From a virus (Duplodnaviria > Caudoviricetes), in the IMG/VR virus record IMGVR_UViG_3300020469_000142, positions 1 to 33,429 of that record: 33,429 nucleotides of DNA; one strand, written 5' to 3'. Of this stretch, positions 1 through 10,073 are shown one piece after another; position 1 is the first letter of the stretch; every line of letters begins with the position of its first letter. A program made the position numbers and the translations under genes. The notes under the pieces are model-generated. The model made no database searches and was not told where the DNA came from. It saw only the letters and a program-made list of their open reading frames with translations.

Positions 1-6
1 CAAAAT

Positions 7-60
7 GATCTAAAAAAAGTGAAAAAAACGTTTACAAATGCGTCAGATAGTAGTATAATA
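7..60 (+). promoter_or_regulatory. T4-type early promoter P1 (sigma70-like) with A-tract UP element
   Basis: GTTTACA (TTTACA 31-36), 17-bp spacer, TATAAT 54-59; upstream AAAAAAAGTGAAAAAAA; AAGGA SD before ATG 90. Confidence 0.88.
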
Positions 61-89
61 TACACATAATTTGAAAAAGGAACTAAATC

Positions 90-350
90 ATGGAAAAATC
101 AATAAGCCAAATCCTAAACGAAATGATCGAATGGTCATGGGATATTTGGGACGAAAAGCGCGACATGGGTCGTATTGCTATTGATGAAAATGATGATCAT
201 GGCTTTACTAAAAAAGATGTACGCAAAGTTGTAAAAGCTTTTGATGGTCGCTTTTTCGAAGATGATGAATCATTCCATTTGGTATTACCAATGGATATCT
301 TGAAAGCACATCAAGGTGATGTGTTCTTTCGCCCCGGTCGACCATTATAA
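90..350 (+). CDS. hypothetical early protein, 86 aa
   Basis: ORF track; AAAGGAAC SD; first gene after P1. Confidence 0.8.
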   Translation: MEKSISQILNEMIEWSWDIWDEKRDMGRIAIDENDDHGFTKKDVRKVVKAFDGRFFEDDESFHLVLPMDILKAHQGDVFFRPGRPL

Positions 351-359
351 GGATATATT

Positions 360-506
360 ATGAATGACCTAAACCAAATACGCTTTCACGGCGTAATGAA
401 TCTCAAAGACTGGTACTACATGTTTGGTGATCTTGACTATTACTTTGGTCATGATCACGATCAATCCTGGTGGGATGCAAAAACAACAAAGTCATGGATA
501 TTATAA
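360..506 (+). CDS. hypothetical early protein, 48 aa, aromatic/acidic (MNDLNQIRFHGVMNLKDWYYMFGDLDYYFGHDHDQSWWDAKTTKSWIL)
   Basis: Translated by hand (not in ORF track); TAAGGA SD; fills the gap between neighbouring genes. Confidence 0.7.
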   Translation: MNDLNQIRFHGVMNLKDWYYMFGDLDYYFGHDHDQSWWDAKTTKSWIL

Positions 507-515
507 GGAGCAAAA

Positions 516-731
516 ATGACTGACCTAGAACTTTACTTGGATCACAATATGATCTATCGCAATGATGGATCATTCGTTCTAAACAGCAAATATGATGTAT
601 TTGTTAGAGGACTCGAAGCTATTATACAGCGCGAAAGAGAACAAGTAATTGACAATGCTGCTGACCAAATCAGTAGAATTAAAGCTGACTTGTATGGACA
701 AGATTCGCTTCCTCTAATTACTGGAGCATAA
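516..731 (+). CDS. hypothetical early protein, 71 aa
   Basis: ORF track; TAAGGAG SD. Confidence 0.8.
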   Translation: MTDLELYLDHNMIYRNDGSFVLNSKYDVFVRGLEAIIQREREQVIDNAADQISRIKADLYGQDSLPLITGA

Positions 732-732
732 C

Positions 733-1188
733 TTGGCTAGCCAATACATCACTGGCGTTAAACTTAGATCTCTAGATCTAAAAATTATTGATGAGTTTGT
801 TGCTAATTTGCAAGAAGAACTTAACATACATCGTTTAAGATCTAAGTGGATCAACATAAAATTTGTTAAGAGTGTTGATGGTAATATGGGTGATTGTATT
901 GGCGATACGTCAGATGTTGACATACGCATTAATAAGACCATGGATTGGAAAGATCAGATGATTACTCTAGCTCATGAAATGGTACATGCTGAACAGTTTC
1001 TTCGTGGGAAGTTAACTGATGGTGCATACTGGCGTAATAGAAACTATGAAAAATGCGAATATGAACGTCTGCCATGGGAAATGTCAGCTCATCAACTAGA
1101 AGAAAAGCTTTACGAAAAGTGCTATCCTGAGTGGGCTCCTATGTATCCTGTTGGATTACCAGCAGACTTTAGAAAAAGCGGTTATTAG
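733..1188 (+). CDS. HExxH zincin-like putative metallopeptidase
   Basis: ITLAHEMVHAEQ motif plus downstream YERLPWEMSA (candidate third ligand E); TTG start with GGAG SD. Confidence 0.7.
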   Translation: MASQYITGVKLRSLDLKIIDEFVANLQEELNIHRLRSKWINIKFVKSVDGNMGDCIGDTSDVDIRINKTMDWKDQMITLAHEMVHAEQFLRGKLTDGAYWRNRNYEKCEYERLPWEMSAHQLEEKLYEKCYPEWAPMYPVGLPADFRKSGY

Positions 1189-1201
1189 TATATAACTAAT
1201 T

Positions 1202-1298
1202 GATCTAAAAAAAGTGAAAAAAAGTGAAAATAATCGTTTACATTTGCTTGAAAGTATGTTATAATATCTATATTACATAATTAAATAAGGAGTTAAAT
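1202..1298 (+). promoter_or_regulatory. early promoter P2 plus leader/RBS cassette
   Basis: (AAAAAAAGTG)x2, TTTACA 1237-1242, 17 bp, extended -10 TGtTATAAT (TATAAT 1260-1265), RBS TAAGGAGTTAAATATG. Confidence 0.92.
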
Positions 1299-1784
1299 AT
1301 GCAAAAACTAGCAATTCACACACAATATCGTGAAAACTATGCCGCACATAATGAAAATTATGATCATGGCGTTGATCAACCACATTGGAAATTTAAAGGC
1401 GGCACTACTTATGTGTTTCCTAATTTTAAGGACTTTAACAAAGTTAATGATATTGTGGCTCAAATCACTGATATGATTGAGTTTTCTAATGAAGCCGCTG
1501 AAGAGTATATCCTTAGTTGGAGTATAGTTCCTCATTCAGAAAAAGTCTGTGAAGATTGGGATAATCCAATTGAGCTTTCTTTCAAGGGCGATGATATTAT
1601 CGCTATCAAAATCACTGACAATCGTGAAGGCGGTTGGATGCGTGATGAAATACTTGAGCATACTGAAACTTGGACTATGGGTTCGTATAATCAAAGACTT
1701 AATTACAAAGGCGAATACCTTATGAATGATGGAGAGTTTGTTTCTCATGAAGGTTTACGTCAATGGCTAAAGGATGCAGCATAA
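1299..1784 (+). CDS. hypothetical early protein, 161 aa
   Basis: ORF track; strong TAAGGAG SD; first gene after P2. Confidence 0.85.
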   Translation: MQKLAIHTQYRENYAAHNENYDHGVDQPHWKFKGGTTYVFPNFKDFNKVNDIVAQITDMIEFSNEAAEEYILSWSIVPHSEKVCEDWDNPIELSFKGDDIIAIKITDNREGGWMRDEILEHTETWTMGSYNQRLNYKGEYLMNDGEFVSHEGLRQWLKDAA

Positions 1785-1793
1785 AAATAATTG

Positions 1794-1874
1794 AAAAAAA
1801 GTGAAAATAATCCTTTACATTTCTAAAAAACTATGTTATAATATACATATTAGATAAATTAATTGGAGTTAATT
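1794..1874 (+). promoter_or_regulatory. early promoter P3 plus leader/RBS
   Basis: AAAAAAAGTGAAAATAATCC, TTTACA 1814-1819, 17 bp, TGtTATAAT (TATAAT 1837-1842), RBS GGAGTTAATTATG. Confidence 0.9.
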
Positions 1875-2144
1875 ATGAAAAAAGTGATAAGCGAAATCCT
1901 AAAAATCGACAATTCTGCCGATTTAAATGAAGCAATCAGAGCTATCAAAGCTCAACAAAAAGCAATCAAGGCTATGGAAGTAGCTAAGAAAAAAGCTGTT
2001 TTCTCAGCGGGCCAAAAGGTCAAAATCAAGTCAAGGAATCAAATTCTTAAAGGCGTTATTGAAAAAATCAATAGAACTAAAGCTATTGTTTTAATCGATG
2101 ACAGACGTTATGACGTACCTTTAACTATCATGGAGGCAGCATAA
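1875..2144 (+). CDS. small basic protein, C-terminal half resembles an SH3/KOW-like beta-barrel
   Basis: Start moved to ATG 1875 behind the GGAG SD; GQKVKIK...KGVIEKINRTKAIV...YDVP pattern; fold is an inference. Confidence 0.75.
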   Translation: MKKVISEILKIDNSADLNEAIRAIKAQQKAIKAMEVAKKKAVFSAGQKVKIKSRNQILKGVIEKINRTKAIVLIDDRRYDVPLTIMEAA

Positions 2145-2320
2145 TGTTTGTTGCTAATTTTCTTAACATGGCTCAAGAGCCAGTGAATGTCAAAATTACT
2201 TTTGGCGAGTTCATACAATCAAAAATCAGTCGCAAAACATTTTTGGACAGCTTATCTGATAAGTTCCAAAGACCTTTTGCTACTGAGTTTTATTACAAAG
2301 GAACTATGTATGTCAGTTGA
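2144..2320 (+). CDS. hypothetical early protein, 58 aa (MFVANFLNMAQEPVNVKITFGEF...EFYYKGTMYVS)
   Basis: Translated by hand; TAATG overlap with upstream stop; GGAGG SD. Confidence 0.72.
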   Translation: MFVANFLNMAQEPVNVKITFGEFIQSKISRKTFLDSLSDKFQRPFATEFYYKGTMYVS

Positions 2321-2639
2321 AGAAATGAAAGTTGAGTTAGAAAGACTTGATACTCTAAAGTGGGATCTTAAGTCTGTTGTTGATAACGTCAATGACAAAA
2401 CTCGTGAAATTAAGTATGACAATACTCCTATGGAAATCTATATGCATGTTGAGCACCTAGCTGAAAAACATGGTGTTGATATTAAATACGAAGTAGATGC
2501 TATACGCGAAAAAGTTAATCTATTGGAATCAGCAATTTATGAGCTGGTATCTCCATTCGAATCTGAGCTAAGAGATGCTGAATACAAGCATGATGATCTT
2601 GAGTATGAGATTGAGGAGGCTGAAAATGGGAGCGACTAG
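2310..2639 (+). CDS. acidic coiled-coil-like hypothetical protein, 109 aa
   Basis: Start revised to ATG 2310 (MSVEEMK) with AAGGA SD; the 2187 start of the track overlaps the 2144 ORF. Confidence 0.78.
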   Translation: MSVEEMKVELERLDTLKWDLKSVVDNVNDKTREIKYDNTPMEIYMHVEHLAEKHGVDIKYEVDAIREKVNLLESAIYELVSPFESELRDAEYKHDDLEYEIEEAENGSD

Positions 2640-2988
2640 TTTCTATATGGGTTCATTAAGGTATTCACCTTGTGGCCGTAAACGTAAAAATCATGCAGCT
2701 AATCGTGTAAAGAAAAAGCCTATGAAGTTTACGCAAAATCTTACGCCGTCTGAAAGTCAGCTGGCAGTCTTACGCGAAAGGCAAGCAAAACAATATAAAT
2801 CTCTCATGGAAGAAGCTATGAAAAATGGCACCTATACTACTATGGGCGGCCATGGCTGTGAGAAGAAAGAAAGAATGCAGTATACTGGTACCTTAGTCAA
2901 AGGTATCGCTACTATGCATAAATCAAATGCCGTACCGGTAATCAATCAACAAGAAGCAATTGATATTGCTAACATGAGGAGAAGCTAA
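2626..2988 (+). CDS. basic hypothetical phage protein, 120 aa (YTGTLVKGIATMHKSNAVPV motif)
   Basis: Start revised to ATG 2626 behind GAGGAGG SD. Confidence 0.8.
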   Translation: MGATSFYMGSLRYSPCGRKRKNHAANRVKKKPMKFTQNLTPSESQLAVLRERQAKQYKSLMEEAMKNGTYTTMGGHGCEKKERMQYTGTLVKGIATMHKSNAVPVINQQEAIDIANMRRS

Positions 2989-3119
2989 TGTCTCAACCAC
3001 AACAAATCGAAAACCAAAAAGATCGTCTTGTCTTTGAAAAGAAGAAAGTAGAAGATCAGGCTAAAACCATTCAAGAACAAGCTGAGCGCATTGCTAAGCT
3101 AATGGAAGGTGGTCAGTAA
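2988..3119 (+). CDS. small coiled-coil-like protein, 43 aa
   Basis: Translated by hand (MSQPQQIENQKDRLVFEKKKVEDQ...); TAATG overlap; GAGGAG SD. Confidence 0.68.
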   Translation: MSQPQQIENQKDRLVFEKKKVEDQAKTIQEQAERIAKLMEGGQ

Positions 3120-3281
3120 ATGGAAGATTGGGATGTAGGTCATTACTTGATTCTATTTTTTATGGGTAGTCTAGCTCTAGCAGCTATTCTACTCACCAGT
3201 ATCAGGATACACTCTGATAAAAATAGAGCAGTATATGACAAACATCTCCATTCTAAACCACGAGATGGCGATAATACTTAA
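3120..3281 (+). CDS. small single-TM membrane protein, 53 aa
   Basis: Translated by hand; hydrophobic YLILFFMGSLALAAILLTSI; starts directly after the upstream stop. Confidence 0.65.
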   Translation: MEDWDVGHYLILFFMGSLALAAILLTSIRIHSDKNRAVYDKHLHSKPRDGDNT

Positions 3282-3371
3282 AAAAAGTGAAAAAAAGTGA
3301 AAATAATCCTTTACATTTGCTGAGTTTTGTGGTATAATATACATATATTCAAATTAAATAAGGAGTTAAAT
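3280..3371 (+). promoter_or_regulatory. early promoter P4 plus leader/RBS cassette
   Basis: (AAAAAAAGTG)x2, TTTACA 3310-3315, 17 bp, TGTGGTATAAT (TATAAT 3333-3338), RBS TAAGGAGTTAAATATG identical to P2. Confidence 0.92.
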
Positions 3372-3677
3372 ATGAATAGAATTGAAATGATAAAAGCTGC
3401 AGCTGAAAAAGCTAAAGCTAAAAGACAAGAAGAAGCTGATTTTCAAGCTTCAATTGTCAAACTTGATGCTCGTAAAGCTGAAAAGAAAGCTGAAATGAAG
3501 CTTCACAAGAAGCTAACAGCTTCAGTCAAAAAGGCTGGCAAACAAATGCCAGGATCTCTTGATTTTAATCGTGCTGAAAATATGTATTATTCAGAAAAAG
3601 ATACTGCTAGGTATCTTGAAGGTACATCTTATATGGACGCATACAACGCTAACAAATCTGCTGATGGAGAATGGTAA
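3372..3677 (+). CDS. Lys/Ala-rich basic helical early protein, 101 aa
   Basis: Start revised to ATG 3372 behind the TAAGGAG SD; the 3327 start of the track lies inside the promoter. Confidence 0.85.
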   Translation: MNRIEMIKAAAEKAKAKRQEEADFQASIVKLDARKAEKKAEMKLHKKLTASVKKAGKQMPGSLDFNRAENMYYSEKDTARYLEGTSYMDAYNANKSADGEW

Positions 3678-3967
3678 TGGCTAGAGGATCTCAAAACTTC
3701 GTAACCACTGTACATACTGCTTCTGCAGGCGATATGCTTGAACTGGAAACAATTCGTAAAGTTGTTAAGGTTATCAATAAAGAAAATAAATTTTCAGAAA
3801 AATATGCTAATGCTTCAGGTTATCTTCCTAGATACAGAGTAAAGTGTCAGGGCAGAGGTCCTAGGACTAAACATGCTCGAGCTGCTGGTTTACATCCAAG
3901 AGCTTATGACAGATCTATTCCACTTTCAGTAGCTGAAAGAATGGATGTTTATATATATCAGATATGA
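3677..3967 (+). CDS. hypothetical basic protein, 96 aa
   Basis: TAATG overlap; GGAG SD; ORF track. Confidence 0.78.
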   Translation: MARGSQNFVTTVHTASAGDMLELETIRKVVKVINKENKFSEKYANASGYLPRYRVKCQGRGPRTKHARAAGLHPRAYDRSIPLSVAERMDVYIYQI

Positions 3968-4134
3968 GAGTCCTAGTAGAAAACTACGGTGATGCTCGTA
4001 TCTTTCAGGATAGGCCTTTTGGATATCGTCGATATCATGTCGAATGGAAAGATGGAAGACGCACTATGTATTCCGGTCTTTGGTATAGTAAAAATAAAGT
4101 AAAAAAATTAGTGGAGGCTCAGCTTAATGACTGA
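3964..4134 (+). CDS. hypothetical protein, 56 aa (MRVLVENYGDARIFQDRPFGYRRYHVEW...)
   Basis: Translated by hand; ATGA overlap with upstream stop; fills the gap exactly. Confidence 0.7.
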   Translation: MRVLVENYGDARIFQDRPFGYRRYHVEWKDGRRTMYSGLWYSKNKVKKLVEAQLND

Positions 4135-4399
4135 ATTTGACAATAGAGTTGAAAGGCAAAGGCAAAAGCTAGCAGCTGAAGAGTGGGCTAATGTCCCTAA
4201 ATCAATTCATACCCATATGACATCATCTATGTGGTATGATACTAGGCCTCAAGATACTGAGGACAGTCACGTAACTGACGTTGAATATAATAGTGGATTA
4301 GTTGTAAGATCTAAAAAAGGTAAGACTATTCATACCTTTGGCAAAAGACTTACAGGCGATGCATTAATTGATTCATATAAGAAATACAATGAACGATAG
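4127..4399 (+). CDS. hypothetical protein, 90 aa
   Basis: ORF track; GGAGG SD. Confidence 0.8.
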   Translation: MTEFDNRVERQRQKLAAEEWANVPKSIHTHMTSSMWYDTRPQDTEDSHVTDVEYNSGLVVRSKKGKTIHTFGKRLTGDALIDSYKKYNER

Positions 4400-4616
4400 A
4401 AAAATGATTGAAGCTAAAACAATCTTATCTACGTTTTTAGATGGAGATTTAAAAGCTGAAACGTTCATTGATTACAACAATAATTATGGAGCTAGATTTT
4501 ATAGAAATCTAATTTGGATAACTGATGAAGTATATAAAGGTCATAGTCAACAGTATGCAGAAGATGCAGCTGAAAACTATGTTTTAGGAGTGAAACATCT
4601 TTATATACGTTCATAG
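4389..4616 (+). CDS. hypothetical protein, about 75 aa
   Basis: ORF track frame; start uncertain (4389 or 4404), probably translationally coupled. Confidence 0.7.
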   Translation: MNDRKMIEAKTILSTFLDGDLKAETFIDYNNNYGARFYRNLIWITDEVYKGHSQQYAEDAAENYVLGVKHLYIRS

Positions 4617-4621
4617 CTTTT

Positions 4622-4675
4622 GGCTCCCACCGGCGGTACTTTTAACTCCTTATCTAAAAACCCCGGTGGTGAGCC
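4622..4675 (+). ncRNA. long GC-rich hairpin with anti-Shine-Dalgarno apical loop (candidate antisense sRNA)
   Basis: GGCTC/GAGCC, CCACCGG/CCGGTGG, GGT/ACC, TTTTA/TAAAA stems; loop ACTCCTTATC; 4641-4653 is the reverse complement of 1285-1297 and 3358-3370. Confidence 0.6.
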
Positions 4676-4691
4676 TCTTTAAGGAAATATA

Positions 4692-5852
4692 ATGGGAAAA
4701 AGAGGACCTTCAATCGATGAAAAAATGATGGGACCAGAACCTAACTTTCATGGTGTCACATTTAAAAATGCAAGCGAAATTAAACTGGCTTTTTCTAAGT
4801 CATGTCATTGGTTTAACTATTTCTTTGATGCAAAGAAAAATGTTTCAGTAATACTTAAATTTGCTGAAAATGAAATGGGATTTAAGAAAAAAGATATTAC
4901 TGCTCTTAAGAAGTTATCTGATTCTAGATTAAATCAGGGTATTGGATCAATAGTAAGACTACATAATGTAGGCTTTGATTTGACAATTATAGGAGAAGAT
5001 ACTCCTATCGGTATTAATTACCTAGTAAGACTTAAAAATAAATTTAATGAACTTCTAAAAGAAGGTAAGTCTATTGCACAAGAAAAGAAAACACAGGCAA
5101 AAAATGTTGTAGTAATACCAGTTCAAGAAAGAACTCGTAGAAAAGTTATGGAAACCATGCATGCTGATTTTGATAAAATGGTTGTTGACAAATGGATGGA
5201 TGGAATATTTGAACCAAAAGAAATAATCTTCCCAACATATAGTCTTTTACAGTTGCATAAAATTAAAGGTGCTGGTATCAAGATTTTTGAAGAAAAGGTT
5301 AGGGAAGAATATAATCCAGTATCGGATGCTTATAACAAAACTTGTGATCAAGCTGTTGAAGCATATTCTCATATCAAAAAAGGCGATCTTCGTAAAATGA
5401 TGAAGGTCATGGAAAAAATATTTGACGATATCGATAGGACGCGAGCTAATGCTAAAGTAACCCGTTTACCTAGGGCTAAAACTAAAAAGACGTCAGACGA
5501 TCAAGTCAAAAATCTCAACTATATGAAAGAAGATGTTGATGCTAAATTAATGTCAATTAATCCTGTAATGATTCCAAGTAAAAACTGCTTATTTGTATAT
5601 AACACAAAAAATCGTATGTTATATCGCTATAAGAATGAATCAGTTTCAGGCTTTGAAGTAAGAGGTTCAACAATTTATAATTGGAATGAAGATTCTATTT
5701 GTATGAGACTTAGGAAGCCAGATGATATACTTCCTGATATATTAACCAAAACCGGAAACCAAATCGATAAGTTATTATCCAGTTTAACTACAAAAGTAAG
5801 TAAACCTACTGGAAGAATAAACAAAGATTGTATATTGTTGAGGGTTTTATAA
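4692..5852 (+). CDS. hypothetical basic protein, 386 aa, upstream of gene 33
   Basis: Long ORF; TAAGGA SD; no motif recognised. Confidence 0.85.
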   Translation: MGKRGPSIDEKMMGPEPNFHGVTFKNASEIKLAFSKSCHWFNYFFDAKKNVSVILKFAENEMGFKKKDITALKKLSDSRLNQGIGSIVRLHNVGFDLTIIGEDTPIGINYLVRLKNKFNELLKEGKSIAQEKKTQAKNVVVIPVQERTRRKVMETMHADFDKMVVDKWMDGIFEPKEIIFPTYSLLQLHKIKGAGIKIFEEKVREEYNPVSDAYNKTCDQAVEAYSHIKKGDLRKMMKVMEKIFDDIDRTRANAKVTRLPRAKTKKTSDDQVKNLNYMKEDVDAKLMSINPVMIPSKNCLFVYNTKNRMLYRYKNESVSGFEVRGSTIYNWNEDSICMRLRKPDDILPDILTKTGNQIDKLLSSLTTKVSKPTGRINKDCILLRVL

Positions 5853-5855
5853 TAG

Positions 5856-5956
5856 GGGCTACGAGCTCGGGCAGGGACAGGAATCGATCGATGATAAAAA
5901 GAACAATATTGATAAGCTTTAATATCACAACAGCATTCCATCCCGCCAACTTTTTT
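5856..5956 (+). other. structured intergenic element / possible attenuator upstream of gene 33
   Basis: GGC-A-GGGA-CA-GGAAT pairs with ATTCC-A-TCCC-GCC, followed by AACTTTTTT; inner ATATTGA/TTAATAT hairpin. Confidence 0.5.
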
Positions 5957-5966
5957 ACTAATAAAA

Positions 5967-6206
5967 ATGGAAGAACTTGAACATAAAATAATGACAAAGA
6001 AAAGATTTACACAGGCAGTAGAAGCTTGCGTATCTCGTAATAATATGAGTTATATAGATGCTATGACTTATGTTATAGAAGAAAGAGGTATGGACTATAG
6101 GAACGTAAAAAAGCTTTTGTCTGATTCTCTTAAAGTAAAATTAGAGCTTGAAGCTACTGATTTACATCTAATTCGTGGTACAAAGAAGAATACATTACCA
6201 ATATGA
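5967..6206 (+). CDS. 33: late promoter transcription co-activator gp33
   Basis: MSYIDA...KLLSDSLKVKLELEA...LI...LPI pattern and 33-59-32 synteny. Confidence 0.88.
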   Translation: MEELEHKIMTKKRFTQAVEACVSRNNMSYIDAMTYVIEERGMDYRNVKKLLSDSLKVKLELEATDLHLIRGTKKNTLPI

Positions 6207-6355
6207 TTAATTGGCTAGAATTACTGATGTTCACATTTGGTAGTATATTTACTATTGTTATGATACTATACTTGCCTGCCGCATATATTGAAAAAAAGTT
6301 TCCATTTGGAAAAAAGAAAGATAAAGAAACAAATTCAGGAGCTAAATTTGGTTGA
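6203..6355 (+). CDS. small single-TM membrane protein, 50 aa, between genes 33 and 59
   Basis: Translated by hand: MINWLELLMFTFGSIFTIVMILYLPAAYIEKKFPFGKKKDK...; ATGA overlap with gene 33 stop. Confidence 0.68.
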   Translation: MINWLELLMFTFGSIFTIVMILYLPAAYIEKKFPFGKKKDKETNSGAKFG

Positions 6356-6920
6356 TCCTTTTGAGTCATATAAATTATATAATGCATTGAAACTACATTT
6401 TGAATCTGATTATGATGCAATCAAATACAACTTTAAATCAAATGTTACTCCTAATTCATTCTTTAAAAGAAGAGATAAATACTTTTTTGCTAAGATAGCA
6501 AGAAATCAAAAAGATTTATTAAACTATTATGTATTTAATTTTGTAGAAGATGTAAAGTATATTGGAGATATGGAAGATCGACATTATACTAAGCATAAGA
6601 AGATACATGATTCGTTAACAAGAACATTTCAGTCGGATATAGATAAATTATCTGATGAAAAATTAGATGATCTATTGGTGGTTAAAAATATAAATCAACC
6701 GCCAAAGATTATTGAAAAGTGGATGCACGAAGAAATAACATTGGAAACATTAGTTATACTAAATGCAATCACGGACTTCATAACTATTGAAGGAAAGAAG
6801 ATTACTGAAACTTTGTTTTGGCCTGACATCTCTAAAAAAATTATGAAGTATAGTCCATTTGTAAAATTTCAAATGGATAAATATAAAATTATAATGCAAA
6901 AAACGTTTACAAATGCGTGA
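6348..6920 (+). CDS. 59: loader of gp41 DNA helicase gp59
   Basis: Y..Y.ALKLHF..DYDAIKY, FFKRRDKYFFAK, ITLETLVIL, KYSPF motifs; start revised to TTG 6348 behind AGGAG. Confidence 0.9.
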   Translation: MVDPFESYKLYNALKLHFESDYDAIKYNFKSNVTPNSFFKRRDKYFFAKIARNQKDLLNYYVFNFVEDVKYIGDMEDRHYTKHKKIHDSLTRTFQSDIDKLSDEKLDDLLVVKNINQPPKIIEKWMHEEITLETLVILNAITDFITIEGKKITETLFWPDISKKIMKYSPFVKFQMDKYKIIMQKTFTNA

Positions 6921-6934
6921 TTATGTGTTATAAT
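6898..6934 (+). promoter_or_regulatory. early-type promoter for gene 32, overlapping the 3' end of gene 59
   Basis: TTTACA 6906-6911, 17 bp, TGtTATAAT (TATAAT 6929-6934). Confidence 0.85.
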
Positions 6935-6997
6935 ATAATACTATATTATGGGTAAAGTGGATAATTCAGTAAATACAACGCAATACGGAGAAATACA

Positions 6998-7882
6998 ATG
7001 TCATTTGCAAATCTGAAGAGCGCGCGAGGCTCGTCCATCGACAAACTCGTAAATGCAGCGCAAGCTGTCAACGAAAAAACAGAAACAAAGTCATATGCTG
7101 ACGATCGTTTCTGGAAACCTACTCAAGATAAAGCTGGTAATGGTTATGCTGTTATTAGATTCTTGCCTGCGAAAGAAGGAGAGGATTTACCTTGGGTAAG
7201 ATACTGGGATCACGGGTTTAAAGGCCCAAGTGGTTTATGGTATATTGAAAATAGTTTGACTTCAATCAATCAAGCTGATCCTGTTAGTGAATCAAATGGT
7301 TTACTTTGGAACTCTGGTCGTGAAGAAGACAAGCAAACAGCTAGGGACAGAAAGAGACGTCTACATTATGTATCTAATGTGATGGTGGTATCTGACTCAG
7401 CAAATCCAGATGCGGAAGGGAAAGTTTTCCTTTACAAATTTGGTAAAAAGATCTTTGATAAAATTATGGATGTTATGCAGCCACAATTTGCTGATGAAGA
7501 TCCAGTGAATCCTTTCGATTTTTGGGAAGGCGCTGACTTCAAACTGAAGATCAGGAAGGTAGAAGGTTGGACTAATTACGATAAGTCCGAATTTTCTGCT
7601 CCATCTGCTTTAGCTGGTGGTAATGATGAAGAGCTAGAAAATATATATTCAAAAATATATTCACTTAGCGATTTCATGGATCCCAAGAACTATAAGTCAT
7701 ATAATGAGCTTAAAGCTAAATTGAATAGAGTTCTTGGTGTGGATGCTGGAGAAACTATGGAAGCTCCTGAAGTCCATTATGCAGCTGCTCCAAGTGAGAT
7801 AGTTGCAGAAGCTTCGCCAATGGCGGAAAGTAATGATGATGATACATTGTCTTACTTTGCAAAATTAGCTAAGGATAATTAA
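6998..7882 (+). CDS. 32: single-stranded DNA-binding protein gp32
   Basis: DDRFWKP..DKAGNGYAVIRFLPA, HGFKG, WYIENSLT, GKVFLYKFGKKIFDKI, NPFDFWEGADFKLKIRKV, acidic tail DDTLSYFAKLA. Confidence 0.97.
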   Translation: MSFANLKSARGSSIDKLVNAAQAVNEKTETKSYADDRFWKPTQDKAGNGYAVIRFLPAKEGEDLPWVRYWDHGFKGPSGLWYIENSLTSINQADPVSESNGLLWNSGREEDKQTARDRKRRLHYVSNVMVVSDSANPDAEGKVFLYKFGKKIFDKIMDVMQPQFADEDPVNPFDFWEGADFKLKIRKVEGWTNYDKSEFSAPSALAGGNDEELENIYSKIYSLSDFMDPKNYKSYNELKAKLNRVLGVDAGETMEAPEVHYAAAPSEIVAEASPMAESNDDDTLSYFAKLAKDN

Positions 7883-7995
7883 CCATAGGAGAACCCGGTA
7901 AAGTCGTAGGGAAATAAACAGAGTCGATTGGCGTCCTTCCGCTCGGATCAAGTAACGAAAACCTTTACATATAAGTTACAGAGTAAATTGCCACT
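7883..7995 (+). ncRNA. candidate structured RNA in the gene 32 3' trailer
   Basis: No usable ORF seen; GC-richer than flanks; several short helices with two possible pseudoknot pairings (by eye). Confidence 0.4.
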
Positions 7996-8024
7996 AAGCC
8001 TCAGTCTGCAGCTGGGGCTTTTTT
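7996..8024 (+). terminator. Rho-independent terminator between convergent operons
   Basis: AAGCCTCAG / CTGGGGCTT stem followed by a T run. Confidence 0.88.
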
Positions 8025-8214
8025 ATACCCGTGACATAACTGCTTCGATATACTCTTTTACACGATGCACAGGAACATGACTGATTGTCGAGTATTCCTC
8101 GAGTATATCAATCTCTTCTGGGGTGGTTATAACCTTGGGAAGTTTTTTTGGTTCTCTGTGAGGGAACGTGAGGGATTTACAAGAGCATCGAGCGTATCTT
8201 TTTGAACGAGCCAA
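8023..8214 (-). CDS. hypothetical small protein, 63 aa
   Basis: TTG start with AAGGA SD just after the tape-measure stop; ends at the terminator. Confidence 0.55.
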   Translation of the reverse strand: MARSKRYARCSCKSLTFPHREPKKLPKVITTPEEIDILEEYSTISHVPVHRVKEYIEAVMSRV

Positions 8215-8225
8215 ATATTTTTCCT

Positions 8226-10073
8226 TTATCCAAATGAATCCGATAATGCTGCAGTGGTAGCTGATCCACTACTATCATTTACTATTGATATATTTTGAAC
8301 TGATCTTCTTGATGCATCAGTTACTATTTGATTTTGGGTATTACCTTGAGCCATACGTTTAGCTTCTAATTGTAAATTTCTGTCTTGATTAATCATATTG
8401 TTTTGATCTACAGCACTAGTAAGAGCTCCAGTTTCTGGATCCATGCCGGCAAATTCATAAATACCGTCAGGTATAGCTCTAGAAGCTAGACCAGCAATTG
8501 ATAACAGTCCTTTACTTGGATCAGGTAATACAGATCTTAAAAGAGCTTTAAATAGCTCAGGTATTTTTGATATTAGTTCTCCCATAGTTGGAAGACTTGC
8601 CATAAAATTTCCTATTTTTTCTGGTAAAGAAATTATACCATTAATAAGTCCATTTATTGCTCCAAATACAAATTGGAATACTGATTCTACTCCATCAACA
8701 AGACTTCCAAATAGATTTTCAAAAGAAAAGTTATCTAAAATTCTTGATATAAAATTGCCTTCTCCAAGAATTTTTTCTGACAGCCATGATATAGCTGATT
8801 TTAACATATCTAATGGAAGACCAACAAAGCCTACTAAGAATCCTTTTATACCACCAAATAATCCTGATATAAGTTTACTTTCTCCTTTAGCTGTATCTTC
8901 TAAGCCGCCAAATATTCCTTTAACCGTATCAATAATACCAAAAATAATTGTTAATGGTAAAAAGAAACGGCCTAAAACTTTACCAAATCTAAAGAAGGCG
9001 TCTTTAGTTGTTTTAAATAATGTAAAGAATGGGTTCAATACAGTAGCAAGAGTTTTACCAACACCTTTTACAAGGCCTGGAACTTTACCTAATGATTTTA
9101 ATTGTGTACCAAATAATCCTTGTTGTGGTTTTGGTATTTTACCAGCAAAAGCTTCTGCAATTTTTCTAACTGGATCTGCTAGATCTCCTACTAGGGCAAA
9201 TATTGCTCTGGGTATTTCCATTGCAAAATTAAATATGCCCGTACCAAAAGTTTTAAATCCGCCTAGTATAAAAGCAGTAAGACTTCCAGCCTTTATAAAA
9301 CCTTTAGAACTCGTAACAAATTTAATTGCGGCTCTTATACCATCAACTACAGCATCAAATAATTGTGTTATTCTTGCACCTACAGCTGATACTTTAGTAG
9401 CTGCTGTACCTCTTAAGTTTTTTAATGGTTTTGTAATGCTATCAAGAAACATATCTAATTGCATAGAAAGACCAAGAGCAAATCCAAGAGCTCTTGGCTT
9501 TATAAATTTCTTAAGTGATTGAAATAAATCTACTACTAAATCTATTATTTTTTGAAAAGGTAATCTTAAGTTCTTTTTACCATCTTTATCAAATGTAAAG
9601 AAAAGTCTTTCAAAAAATCCAGTTATTATACCAGCACTTAATCCAGCTATGGTACCAATAACGGCGCCAACAGCACCTACTAAAATACTAAAGAATCCTT
9701 TCGAAAGTTTGGCTACTTTATTTTCTTTCAGATTGCCAACTATTTCTCCCAATAAATCGTTAGTTTCTTCAGCTCTTGAAGCTGCTTCTCTTTTATCCTC
9801 TAAGTCTTTAAGAGAACTTTTTTCTACCATTTCAGAAGTTAATTTACTTAAAGATTCACTTAATGCTAAGAATCCAGAAGTATTTGTACGTAGTATTTGA
9901 GCCTGTATTGATACGTTATTACGATCAATATTCATTGATATACCAAGTTTATTATTAATATCTTCTAATACATTAGTATCAGGAGTTTCTTTTCTTTCTC
10001 TTGGTTGAGGCGCCGTTTTTTGGCGCTGCATATCAGCTTGTTCTTTTATAGATTTGTTATCTTCTTCAGCCAT
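8226..10073 (-). CDS. probable tape measure / baseplate hub protein (T4 gp29-like)
   Basis: 615 aa, helical, amphipathic G/F/L/K-rich repeats, hydrophobic segment ILVGAVGAVIGTIAGLSAGII; follows gp26/gp51-like genes. Confidence 0.65.
   Translation of the reverse strand: MAEEDNKSIKEQADMQRQKTAPQPRERKETPDTNVLEDINNKLGISMNIDRNNVSIQAQILRTNTSGFLALSESLSKLTSEMVEKSSLKDLEDKREAASRAEETNDLLGEIVGNLKENKVAKLSKGFFSILVGAVGAVIGTIAGLSAGIITGFFERLFFTFDKDGKKNLRLPFQKIIDLVVDLFQSLKKFIKPRALGFALGLSMQLDMFLDSITKPLKNLRGTAATKVSAVGARITQLFDAVVDGIRAAIKFVTSSKGFIKAGSLTAFILGGFKTFGTGIFNFAMEIPRAIFALVGDLADPVRKIAEAFAGKIPKPQQGLFGTQLKSLGKVPGLVKGVGKTLATVLNPFFTLFKTTKDAFFRFGKVLGRFFLPLTIIFGIIDTVKGIFGGLEDTAKGESKLISGLFGGIKGFLVGFVGLPLDMLKSAISWLSEKILGEGNFISRILDNFSFENLFGSLVDGVESVFQFVFGAINGLINGIISLPEKIGNFMASLPTMGELISKIPELFKALLRSVLPDPSKGLLSIAGLASRAIPDGIYEFAGMDPETGALTSAVDQNNMINQDRNLQLEAKRMAQGNTQNQIVTDASRRSVQNISIVNDSSGSATTAALSDSFG

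Follow-up and report, generated by a model that had tools for sequence, protein, structure and literature searches.

The intergenic hairpin behind the last early gene of a T4-like phage is a real and strongly conserved RNA element, and its loop is complementary to the Shine-Dalgarno (SD) stretch in several of the phage's own early leaders. We consider it probable (roughly 0.6) that this hairpin is an RNA which would pair with early leaders and mask their ribosome binding sites (RBSs), thereby doing by base-pairing a job like that of the T4 protein RegB. The comparative evidence that the loop may read the phage's own early leaders is good but incomplete. The DNA analysed here, called the window throughout, is a virus record of 33,429 bases with a G+C content of 34%, and homologues of gp33, gp59 and gp32 place it among the T4-like phages. 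Its source is probably marine, because seawater and marine runs hold short pieces that are 95-100% alike to the window and because the nearest gp32 proteins in GenBank (54-57%) belong to Methylophilales, cyanobacterial and Pelagibacter phages. No tRNA or tmRNA was found in the window. The positions of all features are collected in Table 1.

Table 1. Coordinates of the hairpin, its predicted targets and neighbouring features; positions refer to the window unless a related locus is named.
Feature	Position	Strand	Remarks
Early-type promoter P1 (TTTACA-17-TATAAT)	31..59	+	Leader poor match to the hairpin loop, -6.0 kcal/mol
Weaker predicted target, RBS of the gene at 516	503..510	+	8 nt; -10.2 kcal/mol
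Early-type promoter P2	1237..1265	+	11/12 consensus letters
Predicted target, RBS of the 161-aa gene behind P2	1285..1297	+	13-nt complement; duplex -16.2 kcal/mol
Early-type promoter P3	1814..1842	+	Sigma70-type pattern TTTACA-17-TATAAT
Weaker predicted target, RBS behind P3	1865..1872	+	8 nt; -12.2 kcal/mol
Early-type promoter P4	3310..3338	+	Nearest promoter upstream of the hairpin; likely RNA source
Predicted target, RBS of the 101-aa gene behind P4	3358..3370	+	13-nt complement; duplex -16.2 kcal/mol
75-aa gene, no assigned function	4389..4616	+	Ends 5 nt short of the stem; no obligatory partner
Conserved RNA hairpin, closing stem and loop	4622..4675	+	Fold z -5.93; family; covariation; G-U excess
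13-nt stretch complementary to the P2 and P4 leaders	4641..4653	+	4641-4644 is a lineage-specific flank; duplex -16.2 kcal/mol
Loop core ACTCCTTATC, complement of GATAAGGAGT	4645..4654	+	94/102 distinct members; mean unpaired probability 0.94-0.99 (64 members)
Short U-rich tail behind the stem	4676..4680	+	Putative weak terminator or trimming end
386-aa gene (phrog_11903), no assigned function	4692..5852	+	Syntenic anchor
gp33, gp59 and gp32 homologues	5967..7882	+	Place the window among T4-like phages
uvsX hairpin with ACTCCTTATC loop, G002	L293:7330-7389		Predicted fold
uvsX hairpin with ACTCCTTATC loop, G001	L284:16034-16093	-	Predicted fold

An initial annotation made from the letters of the window alone had described a long bulged stem whose loop is antisense to an RBS shared by early cassettes, and both parts of that description hold. 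The 20-pair bulged stem folds at -26.5 kcal/mol, and none of 200 shuffled sequences was as stable. When the whole window was searched for the 13-nt RBS sequence, exact copies were found in the P2 and P4 leaders on the + strand and at 4641-4653 on the minus strand, that is, in the hairpin; the match extends to 16 of 17 nt, and the 8-nt partial matches to the P3 leader and to the gene at 516 are likewise present. Read on the minus strand, the site has no start codon at RBS distance, as had been noted. A match of at least 13 nt to any of the five early leaders arose in 6 of 20,000 letter shuffles of the 22-nt loop region, but P2 and P4 share one cassette in two copies, and their leaders are thus not independent matches. 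With two mismatches allowed, five occurrences of the 13-mer were found against 3.06 expected, which is not unusual.

Four of the 13 complementary letters lie within the weak A-U upper part of the stem, and opening them is predicted to cost about 1.4 kcal/mol, with 0.9-2.4 kcal/mol for the targets. The predicted duplexes are strongest for P2 and P4, followed by P3 and the gene at 516 (Table 1), and fall to -6.7 kcal/mol for the adjacent gene, -6.2 for gp32 and the still weaker value for P1. At the next gene, the RBS (4680-4685) is matched by the loop over 6 nt only, in a predicted duplex far weaker than those of the P2 and P4 leaders.

Five promoters of the sigma70 type (TTTACA-17-TATAAT) begin at 31, 1237, 1814, 3310 and 6906. 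The early promoters stand within near-identical A-rich cassettes (1-90, 1201-1300, 1790-1875 and 3281-3372 of the window) that resemble PeSL repeats, and such cassettes are a likely substrate for gene shuffling. On the + strand between 3338 and 4622 there is no further strong promoter-like site besides P4, and no strong terminator-like site separates P1-P4 from the hairpin. With no evident promoter of its own, the hairpin RNA would therefore come from P4 or from read-through. Contigs from four RNA-labelled runs gave scattered pieces of 150-190 nt at a depth of 2-5, none of them at 4574-4755, a coverage too shallow to weigh either way.

Related loci were fetched through the neighbouring genes; a single-protein locus search with the 386-aa gene returned no loci, and alignments were needed. 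Of the 297 loci obtained, 244 carry the 386-aa gene on the + strand, and a motif-bearing hairpin stands upstream of it in 220 of these 244, a redundant set that includes near-copies of the window and reduces to 102 distinct sequences. The core ACTCCTTATC is present in 94 of the 102, a conservation that is partly built in, as 6 of the 10 core letters were set by the motif search, in which only the first A and the final ATC could vary. Among the 24 loci without a match, 15 have too little upstream DNA, two show a weaker copy by eye, and seven make up the L148 clade (with G002, 70% complete), which has no intergenic copy and yet keeps the TGATAAGGA leaders. In L539 the core is altered while the leader is the same as in its sister L537. 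A covariance model (R1, 10 pairs) gave a single match in each of 10 contigs out of 13, the three without one being G001, G002 and G012; because the G001 variant and the G012 copy were among those missed, the model is no test of absence. A direct stem-loop pattern scan of viral contigs gave 123 stretches, and the 40 matches of lowest GC that were inspected were all unrelated.

Six GenBank phage regions around distant homologues of the 386-aa protein hold no such hairpin on the + strand, and five whole GenBank records (C48C1, Melnitz-3, HTVC008M, phiM12 and Cr30) contain 13 matches to the core pattern, none of them in a comparable hairpin. No cultured carrier was thus found among these five genomes and six regions, and the known carriers are uncultured. 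C48C1 (L667, GenBank OQ984149), a complete relative, has GA-repeat early leaders instead of the GGAG tag at 3400-6200, and no core hairpin there.

The place of the element at the end of the P4-driven gene run, which the initial annotation had pointed out, recurs in the relatives. The core lies 20-45 nt behind the stop codon in 79 of the 85 loci with a hit to the motif of the 75-aa gene, the other six having a different upstream gene. Where the 75-aa gene is missing, the element follows whichever gene closes the block, with at least three gene families in this position, and the distance from the core to the 386-aa gene ranges from 43 to 2291 nt. Since the upstream genes vary and the downstream distance varies, the element is tied to neither neighbour and marks the 3' end of a variable early block. 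The 75-aa gene, which is also found in other phages that lack the element, was considered as a protein partner and set aside, as gene and element each occur without the other; its product (four strands plus a helix) had no fold match at E <= 0.001. Nor is there any sign that the 386-aa protein is an RNA-guided enzyme: it matched its own viral homologues only, with no significant sequence or fold match in the PDB and only weak scattered hits in Pfam. In L153, the DNA separating the element from the 386-aa gene holds a sequence (about 7890-7970) that looks tRNA-like by eye.

The stem sequence is almost unshared between clades, and its pairing is maintained within them. In two clades both sides had changed in 10 of 13 pairs (7 sequences) and in 5 of 11 pairs (11 sequences), with 97-98% of cells paired; none of 500 shuffles reached these values and slid controls gave 24-54%, the structures having been derived from the same sequences. 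A third clade showed changes on both sides in 5 of 17 pairs. The covariation predicted at the outset is thus present in the homologues. The strand can also be told: in 60 stems that are otherwise of Watson-Crick pairs only, interior oppositions comprise 49 G-U against 2 A-C, which indicates that the + strand is the structured one and that the loop shows the anti-SD sense. This asymmetry rules out the minus-strand reading, in which the loop would display an RBS or a GGA decoy. The folding energies of both strands (35/60) were uninformative in this respect.

The core is predicted to be almost always unpaired, and most members have a loop of about 20 nt. Within the loop, L170, L172, L177, L179, L198, L260 and L263 carry one or two further hairpins, several of them capped by GCAA-type loops; the core itself stays unpaired. 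Many members begin with GG behind a U-rich run and close with the stem and then ACC or ATC before a U-run, loosely like the acceptor end of a tRNA, and these ends may point to a processing route. A scan of positions 1-9000 of the window with Rfam 15 at E <= 5 gave one chance hit elsewhere and none at the hairpin; twelve related loci, eleven of them with the element, gave no Rfam match at the gathering score.

The genes that the loop matches were examined in 11 contigs (the window and ten others; G009 was dropped, its element not being in the set), in which genes were called and promoter classes and gene starts were assigned from patterns of our own; for the late class the T4 motif was used. 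At least 8 nt of complement to the contig's own loop were found in 27 of the 62 leaders of first genes behind early promoters, in 0 of 75 behind late promoters and in 12 of 508 other genes. Many of these leaders are orthologous, and the counts are therefore not independent draws and the Fisher p values exaggerate their independence. The enrichment at promoter-proximal early genes that had been anticipated is thus found, with over half of the early-first leaders (35/62) lacking a match. Behind several early promoters of L460, L459, L541 and L509 stands a common leader with GGGATC and no match to the loop, a second class of early leader.

The complementarity also runs past the generic SD sequence, as the initial annotation had proposed. 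Over 42 elements the mean match to the leaders was 10.0 nt for the own loop versus 5.7-7.4 nt for three 16S-type tails. Pooled leaders (n = 117) lean to TGATAAGGAGT around AGGA, and GGAG is followed by T in 72% and by G in none; this agrees with the loop's A rather than with the C found in the 16S tail.

Leaders that match are found 14-39 kb upstream of the element in G003, G004, G005, G008 and G012 and up to about 60 kb in G013, and distances of tens of kilobases favour action in trans. They weigh against the best-surviving alternative, in which the loop acts in cis alone, pairing either with the leader of the transcript that carries it or, on read-through RNA, with the next gene's RBS, but not with any other molecule. 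Several features are in line with pairing in cis. With P1-P4 facing the element and no strong terminator-like site between, the hairpin may close every early transcript; 62 of 102 members have an early promoter no more than 130 nt behind the core (the window and 40 of the 102 have none there), and 47 of 102 carry a complement of at least 8 nt in the next 60-130 nt. A precedent exists in icaR of Staphylococcus aureus, for which it is described that a pyrimidine motif at the 3' end pairs with the SD region and blocks initiation (PMC3868564). But icaR, in that account, is one mRNA acting on itself, whereas the hairpin studied here matches several leaders, at distances of up to tens of kilobases. 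The variable spacing to the 386-aa gene and the 6-nt match to the next RBS in the window speak further against a purely cis-acting element, which we regard as unlikely.

If the loop reads the leaders of its own phage, the two should change together. In 27 of 38 elements (32 when G-U is counted), base -3 of the loop pairs with the letter that follows GGAGT in early leaders not adjacent to the element, against a mean of 13.4 and a maximum of 24 in 20,000 permutations, figures that are uncorrected for kinship. Matches extend on the spacer side to 12-15 nt in the clades of the window and of L132 and to 10-12 nt in the L145/L153 clade, and L509 and the L179 clade likewise show spacer-side extension; in the L577 clade (12-13 nt) and in L459/L460 (15 nt) it is the upstream side that is extended. 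For a comparison between lineages, 19 clades were drawn by eye on a FastTree tree (quick and FastTree trees were used). The own loop matched better than the mean foreign loop in 11 of the 19 (sign test p 0.48, Wilcoxon p 0.025), and in 6 of 19 it beat the loops of all 18 other clades, thanks to extensions that differ between clades and lie to either side of the core. In the clades GCA, 183, 521, 232 and 192, the own loop is equalled or outdone by foreign loops, and the match consists of the shared core alone. Because there are only 2-4 independent loop/leader pairs, the tracking is not significant once kinship is respected. The test that had been named beforehand as capable of refuting the proposal therefore gave a divided answer: tracking is clear in 6-8 of 19 clades and absent in about 8, with too few independent contrasts.

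The constancy of the core in clades whose flanks do not track is what would be expected of an RNA directed at the host, either an anti-SD RNA or a mimic of the 3' tail of 16S rRNA, that dampens host translation or titrates a factor binding the tail; the phage leaders would then match simply as strong SD sites. The core does overlap the 16S tail, and 16S genes that continue CCTCCTTATC occur in many bacteria, marine Gammaproteobacteria included (at least 120 stretches). However, the loop has A where 16S rRNA has C, matching GGAGT in the leaders; in several clades phage leaders are matched by flank extensions of 12-15 nt; and the motif is avoided by the late-first class (TAAGGA in 1/75 leaders). 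A host-directed role thus appears improbable.

The preferred reading remains pairing with early leaders in trans. The RNA would be made from the early promoters, from P4 and by read-through from P1-P3, and would persist either as a trimmed piece of 45-65 nt or as the 3' end of early transcripts, protected by the stem. Release of the stem by RNase III, as suggested in the initial annotation, is not required for this reading. Its accumulation would be delayed, since the hairpin is made last from the same promoters. Its open loop would mask 9-15 nt over the SD sequence, on its own transcript and on others, and keep the 30S subunit from binding, with a timed shut-off of a class of early proteins as the outcome. 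Of the early-gene shut-off RNA originally proposed, the conserved element, the covarying stem, the anti-SD strand and a complement confined, among the first genes behind promoters, to the early ones have stood, while the tracking of loop and RBS is mixed. The comparative evidence shows the potential for pairing and not its sign, and the same pairing might have another outcome, in which the RNA protects, stores or times early mRNAs or recruits a nuclease or a phage protein. To this we give a slim chance: the paired stretch covers the SD sequence itself, where the 30S subunit is excluded by an established mechanism, and no partner protein is tied to the element.

A terminator or 3' stabiliser of the early block, with the loop kept for another reason such as protein binding, is the least likely reading: the element does lie directly behind a stop codon, the 10 nt that follow the stem include at least five T in 46/64 members (on automatic stem ends, in places imprecise), and a promoter stands right behind it in the majority given above, as described for PeSLs (PMC4122927); a terminator scan of the window did not call the hairpin. 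But a fixed 10-nt loop is not needed for termination, the wide loops hold inner hairpins in some members, there is one copy per contig (10/13 contigs), the stem in the L183 clade runs into the -35 box of the promoter with no U-tract, and the early-specific complement is left unexplained. Termination as a second role can coexist with leader pairing.

Understanding of early-gene shut-off in T4-like phages is incomplete; in T4 itself, a protein nuclease takes care of the post-transcriptional side. C-rich loops that silence translation in trans by anti-SD pairing are familiar from RNAIII and RsaE of S. aureus, bacterial RNAs that are long or carry several loops and act on host targets. The hairpin is like them in its predicted loop-presented anti-SD pairing, and the Rfam scans gave no match. 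It has two features of an anti-SD regulatory RNA, namely a conserved structure with an unpaired anti-SD seed and a complement to a defined set of translation starts. We found no description of it in the open-access literature or in Rfam, the alignments of a viral-RNA catalogue (PMC10690425) lying outside this comparison, which agrees with the earlier impression that the element had not been described.

RegB is described as an endoribonuclease, activated by S1, that inactivates early mRNAs at GGAG-type SD sequences and spares middle and late ones (PMC3014915; PMC1702504). The predicted outcome is the same for the hairpin, with recognition by base-pairing of RNA rather than by a protein nuclease (PMC3014915). 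According to that 2010 review, no small trans-acting regulatory RNA from T4 had been functionally characterised (PMC3014915). PF10715 (regB) was matched in 0 of 5 records, in which the controls were also unmatched, four of the records being incomplete and the complete one not confirmed as a carrier of the element.

Among bacterial RNAs, the Cuckoo, RSs0680 (CcsR) and ar14 sRNAs of Alphaproteobacteria are presented as 2-4 adjacent hairpins with CCUCCUCCC (PMC4615179). Variable stems that display a fixed anti-SD-like loop are common to these and to our element, and Cuckoo is co-transcribed behind a small upstream gene, as the hairpin would be; in contrast to the bacterial Cuckoo as described there, the phage element has one closing stem and one motif, with the loop ACUCCUUAUC, and matches the phage's own leaders (PMC4615179). 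It does not belong to the Cuckoo or ar14 group, having ACTCCTTATC as its core instead of CCUCCUCCC and no run of 2-4 adjacent hairpins. PeSLs of T4-like phages are described as repeated cassettes of a sigma70-type early promoter and SD sequence, with a stem-loop just before the promoter, and the main text of that paper uses neither 'antisense' nor 'complementary' (PMC4122927). Those stem-loops are repeated, while the phage element is single-copy with a fixed loop (PMC4122927). The hairpin is accordingly not a PeSL cassette stem-loop, given its single copy per contig and the members, the window among them, with no promoter behind it.

In Cluster K mycobacteriophages, the SAS is reported as an extended RBS motif on non-structural genes only, with letters that 16S rRNA cannot pair (PMC3203893). 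Four of those genomes are noted to have a single copy in opposite orientation away from a gene start, and the authors leave open whether RNA or protein reads the motif (PMC3203893). This single reversed copy would be the nearest printed hint of an anti-tag RNA in the literature as far as it is laid out there; phage group and motif are different, and the passages on the reversed copy describe no hairpin or antisense role for it (PMC3203893). If our reading is true, it would offer a reason for extended RBS motifs on non-structural phage genes such as the SAS. Silencing of a whole class of a phage's own genes through a shared RBS tag would then be a design that we did not find in the open-access literature. 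It would also be a compact and programmable repressor, in which the stem is free and only the 10-15 nt of the loop matter.

A hairpin with the same core was found inside a gene. In G001, which has a variant intergenic loop, and G002, which has no intergenic copy, a hairpin of -25 kcal/mol with the canonical core lies within the frame of recA-like uvsX, the core falling on codons for T-P-Y-L. The exact core occurs in 26 of 75 distinct related uvsX stretches (L585-L664), against 5.9% expected from codon usage. Compared with synonymous recodings, these 26 have a median fold z of -2.96, and 20 of 26 lie below -2 versus 3 of 43 without the core (six near-core rows were left out). Synonymous diversity falls in the arms of the hairpin. 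However, much of the stem is fixed by the protein sequence, both-side changes are seen in only 1 of 10 consensus pairs, and 25 of the 26 core-bearing genes fall in one clade of 47, with a patchy distribution (10 changes). G013 has both copies, and G003 and G005 have the intergenic copy only. The uvsX hairpin as a second anti-leader element is a lead and not a finding. On a tentative wider view, which we hold to be doubtful, a lineage of lytic T4-like phages would make the early-to-later switch by RNA alone: a class of early leaders would carry an extended tag of the TGATAAGGAG(T) type, an anti-tag hairpin closing the early block would act on them in trans, and in some of these phages a second copy, set in synonymous codons of uvsX, would let the intergenic one decay or go, as in G001 and G002.

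Two further stretches of the window may be of interest as RNA. The gp32 leader (6934-6997) is conserved across the relatives and has no match to the hairpin loop; the viral structured-RNA catalogue reports candidate structures upstream of gp32 genes (PMC10690425). Between the 386-aa gene and gp33, an intergenic stretch of about 110 nt (5855-5955) with GC-rich ends and no Rfam match folds at -22.6 kcal/mol and is possibly another RNA.
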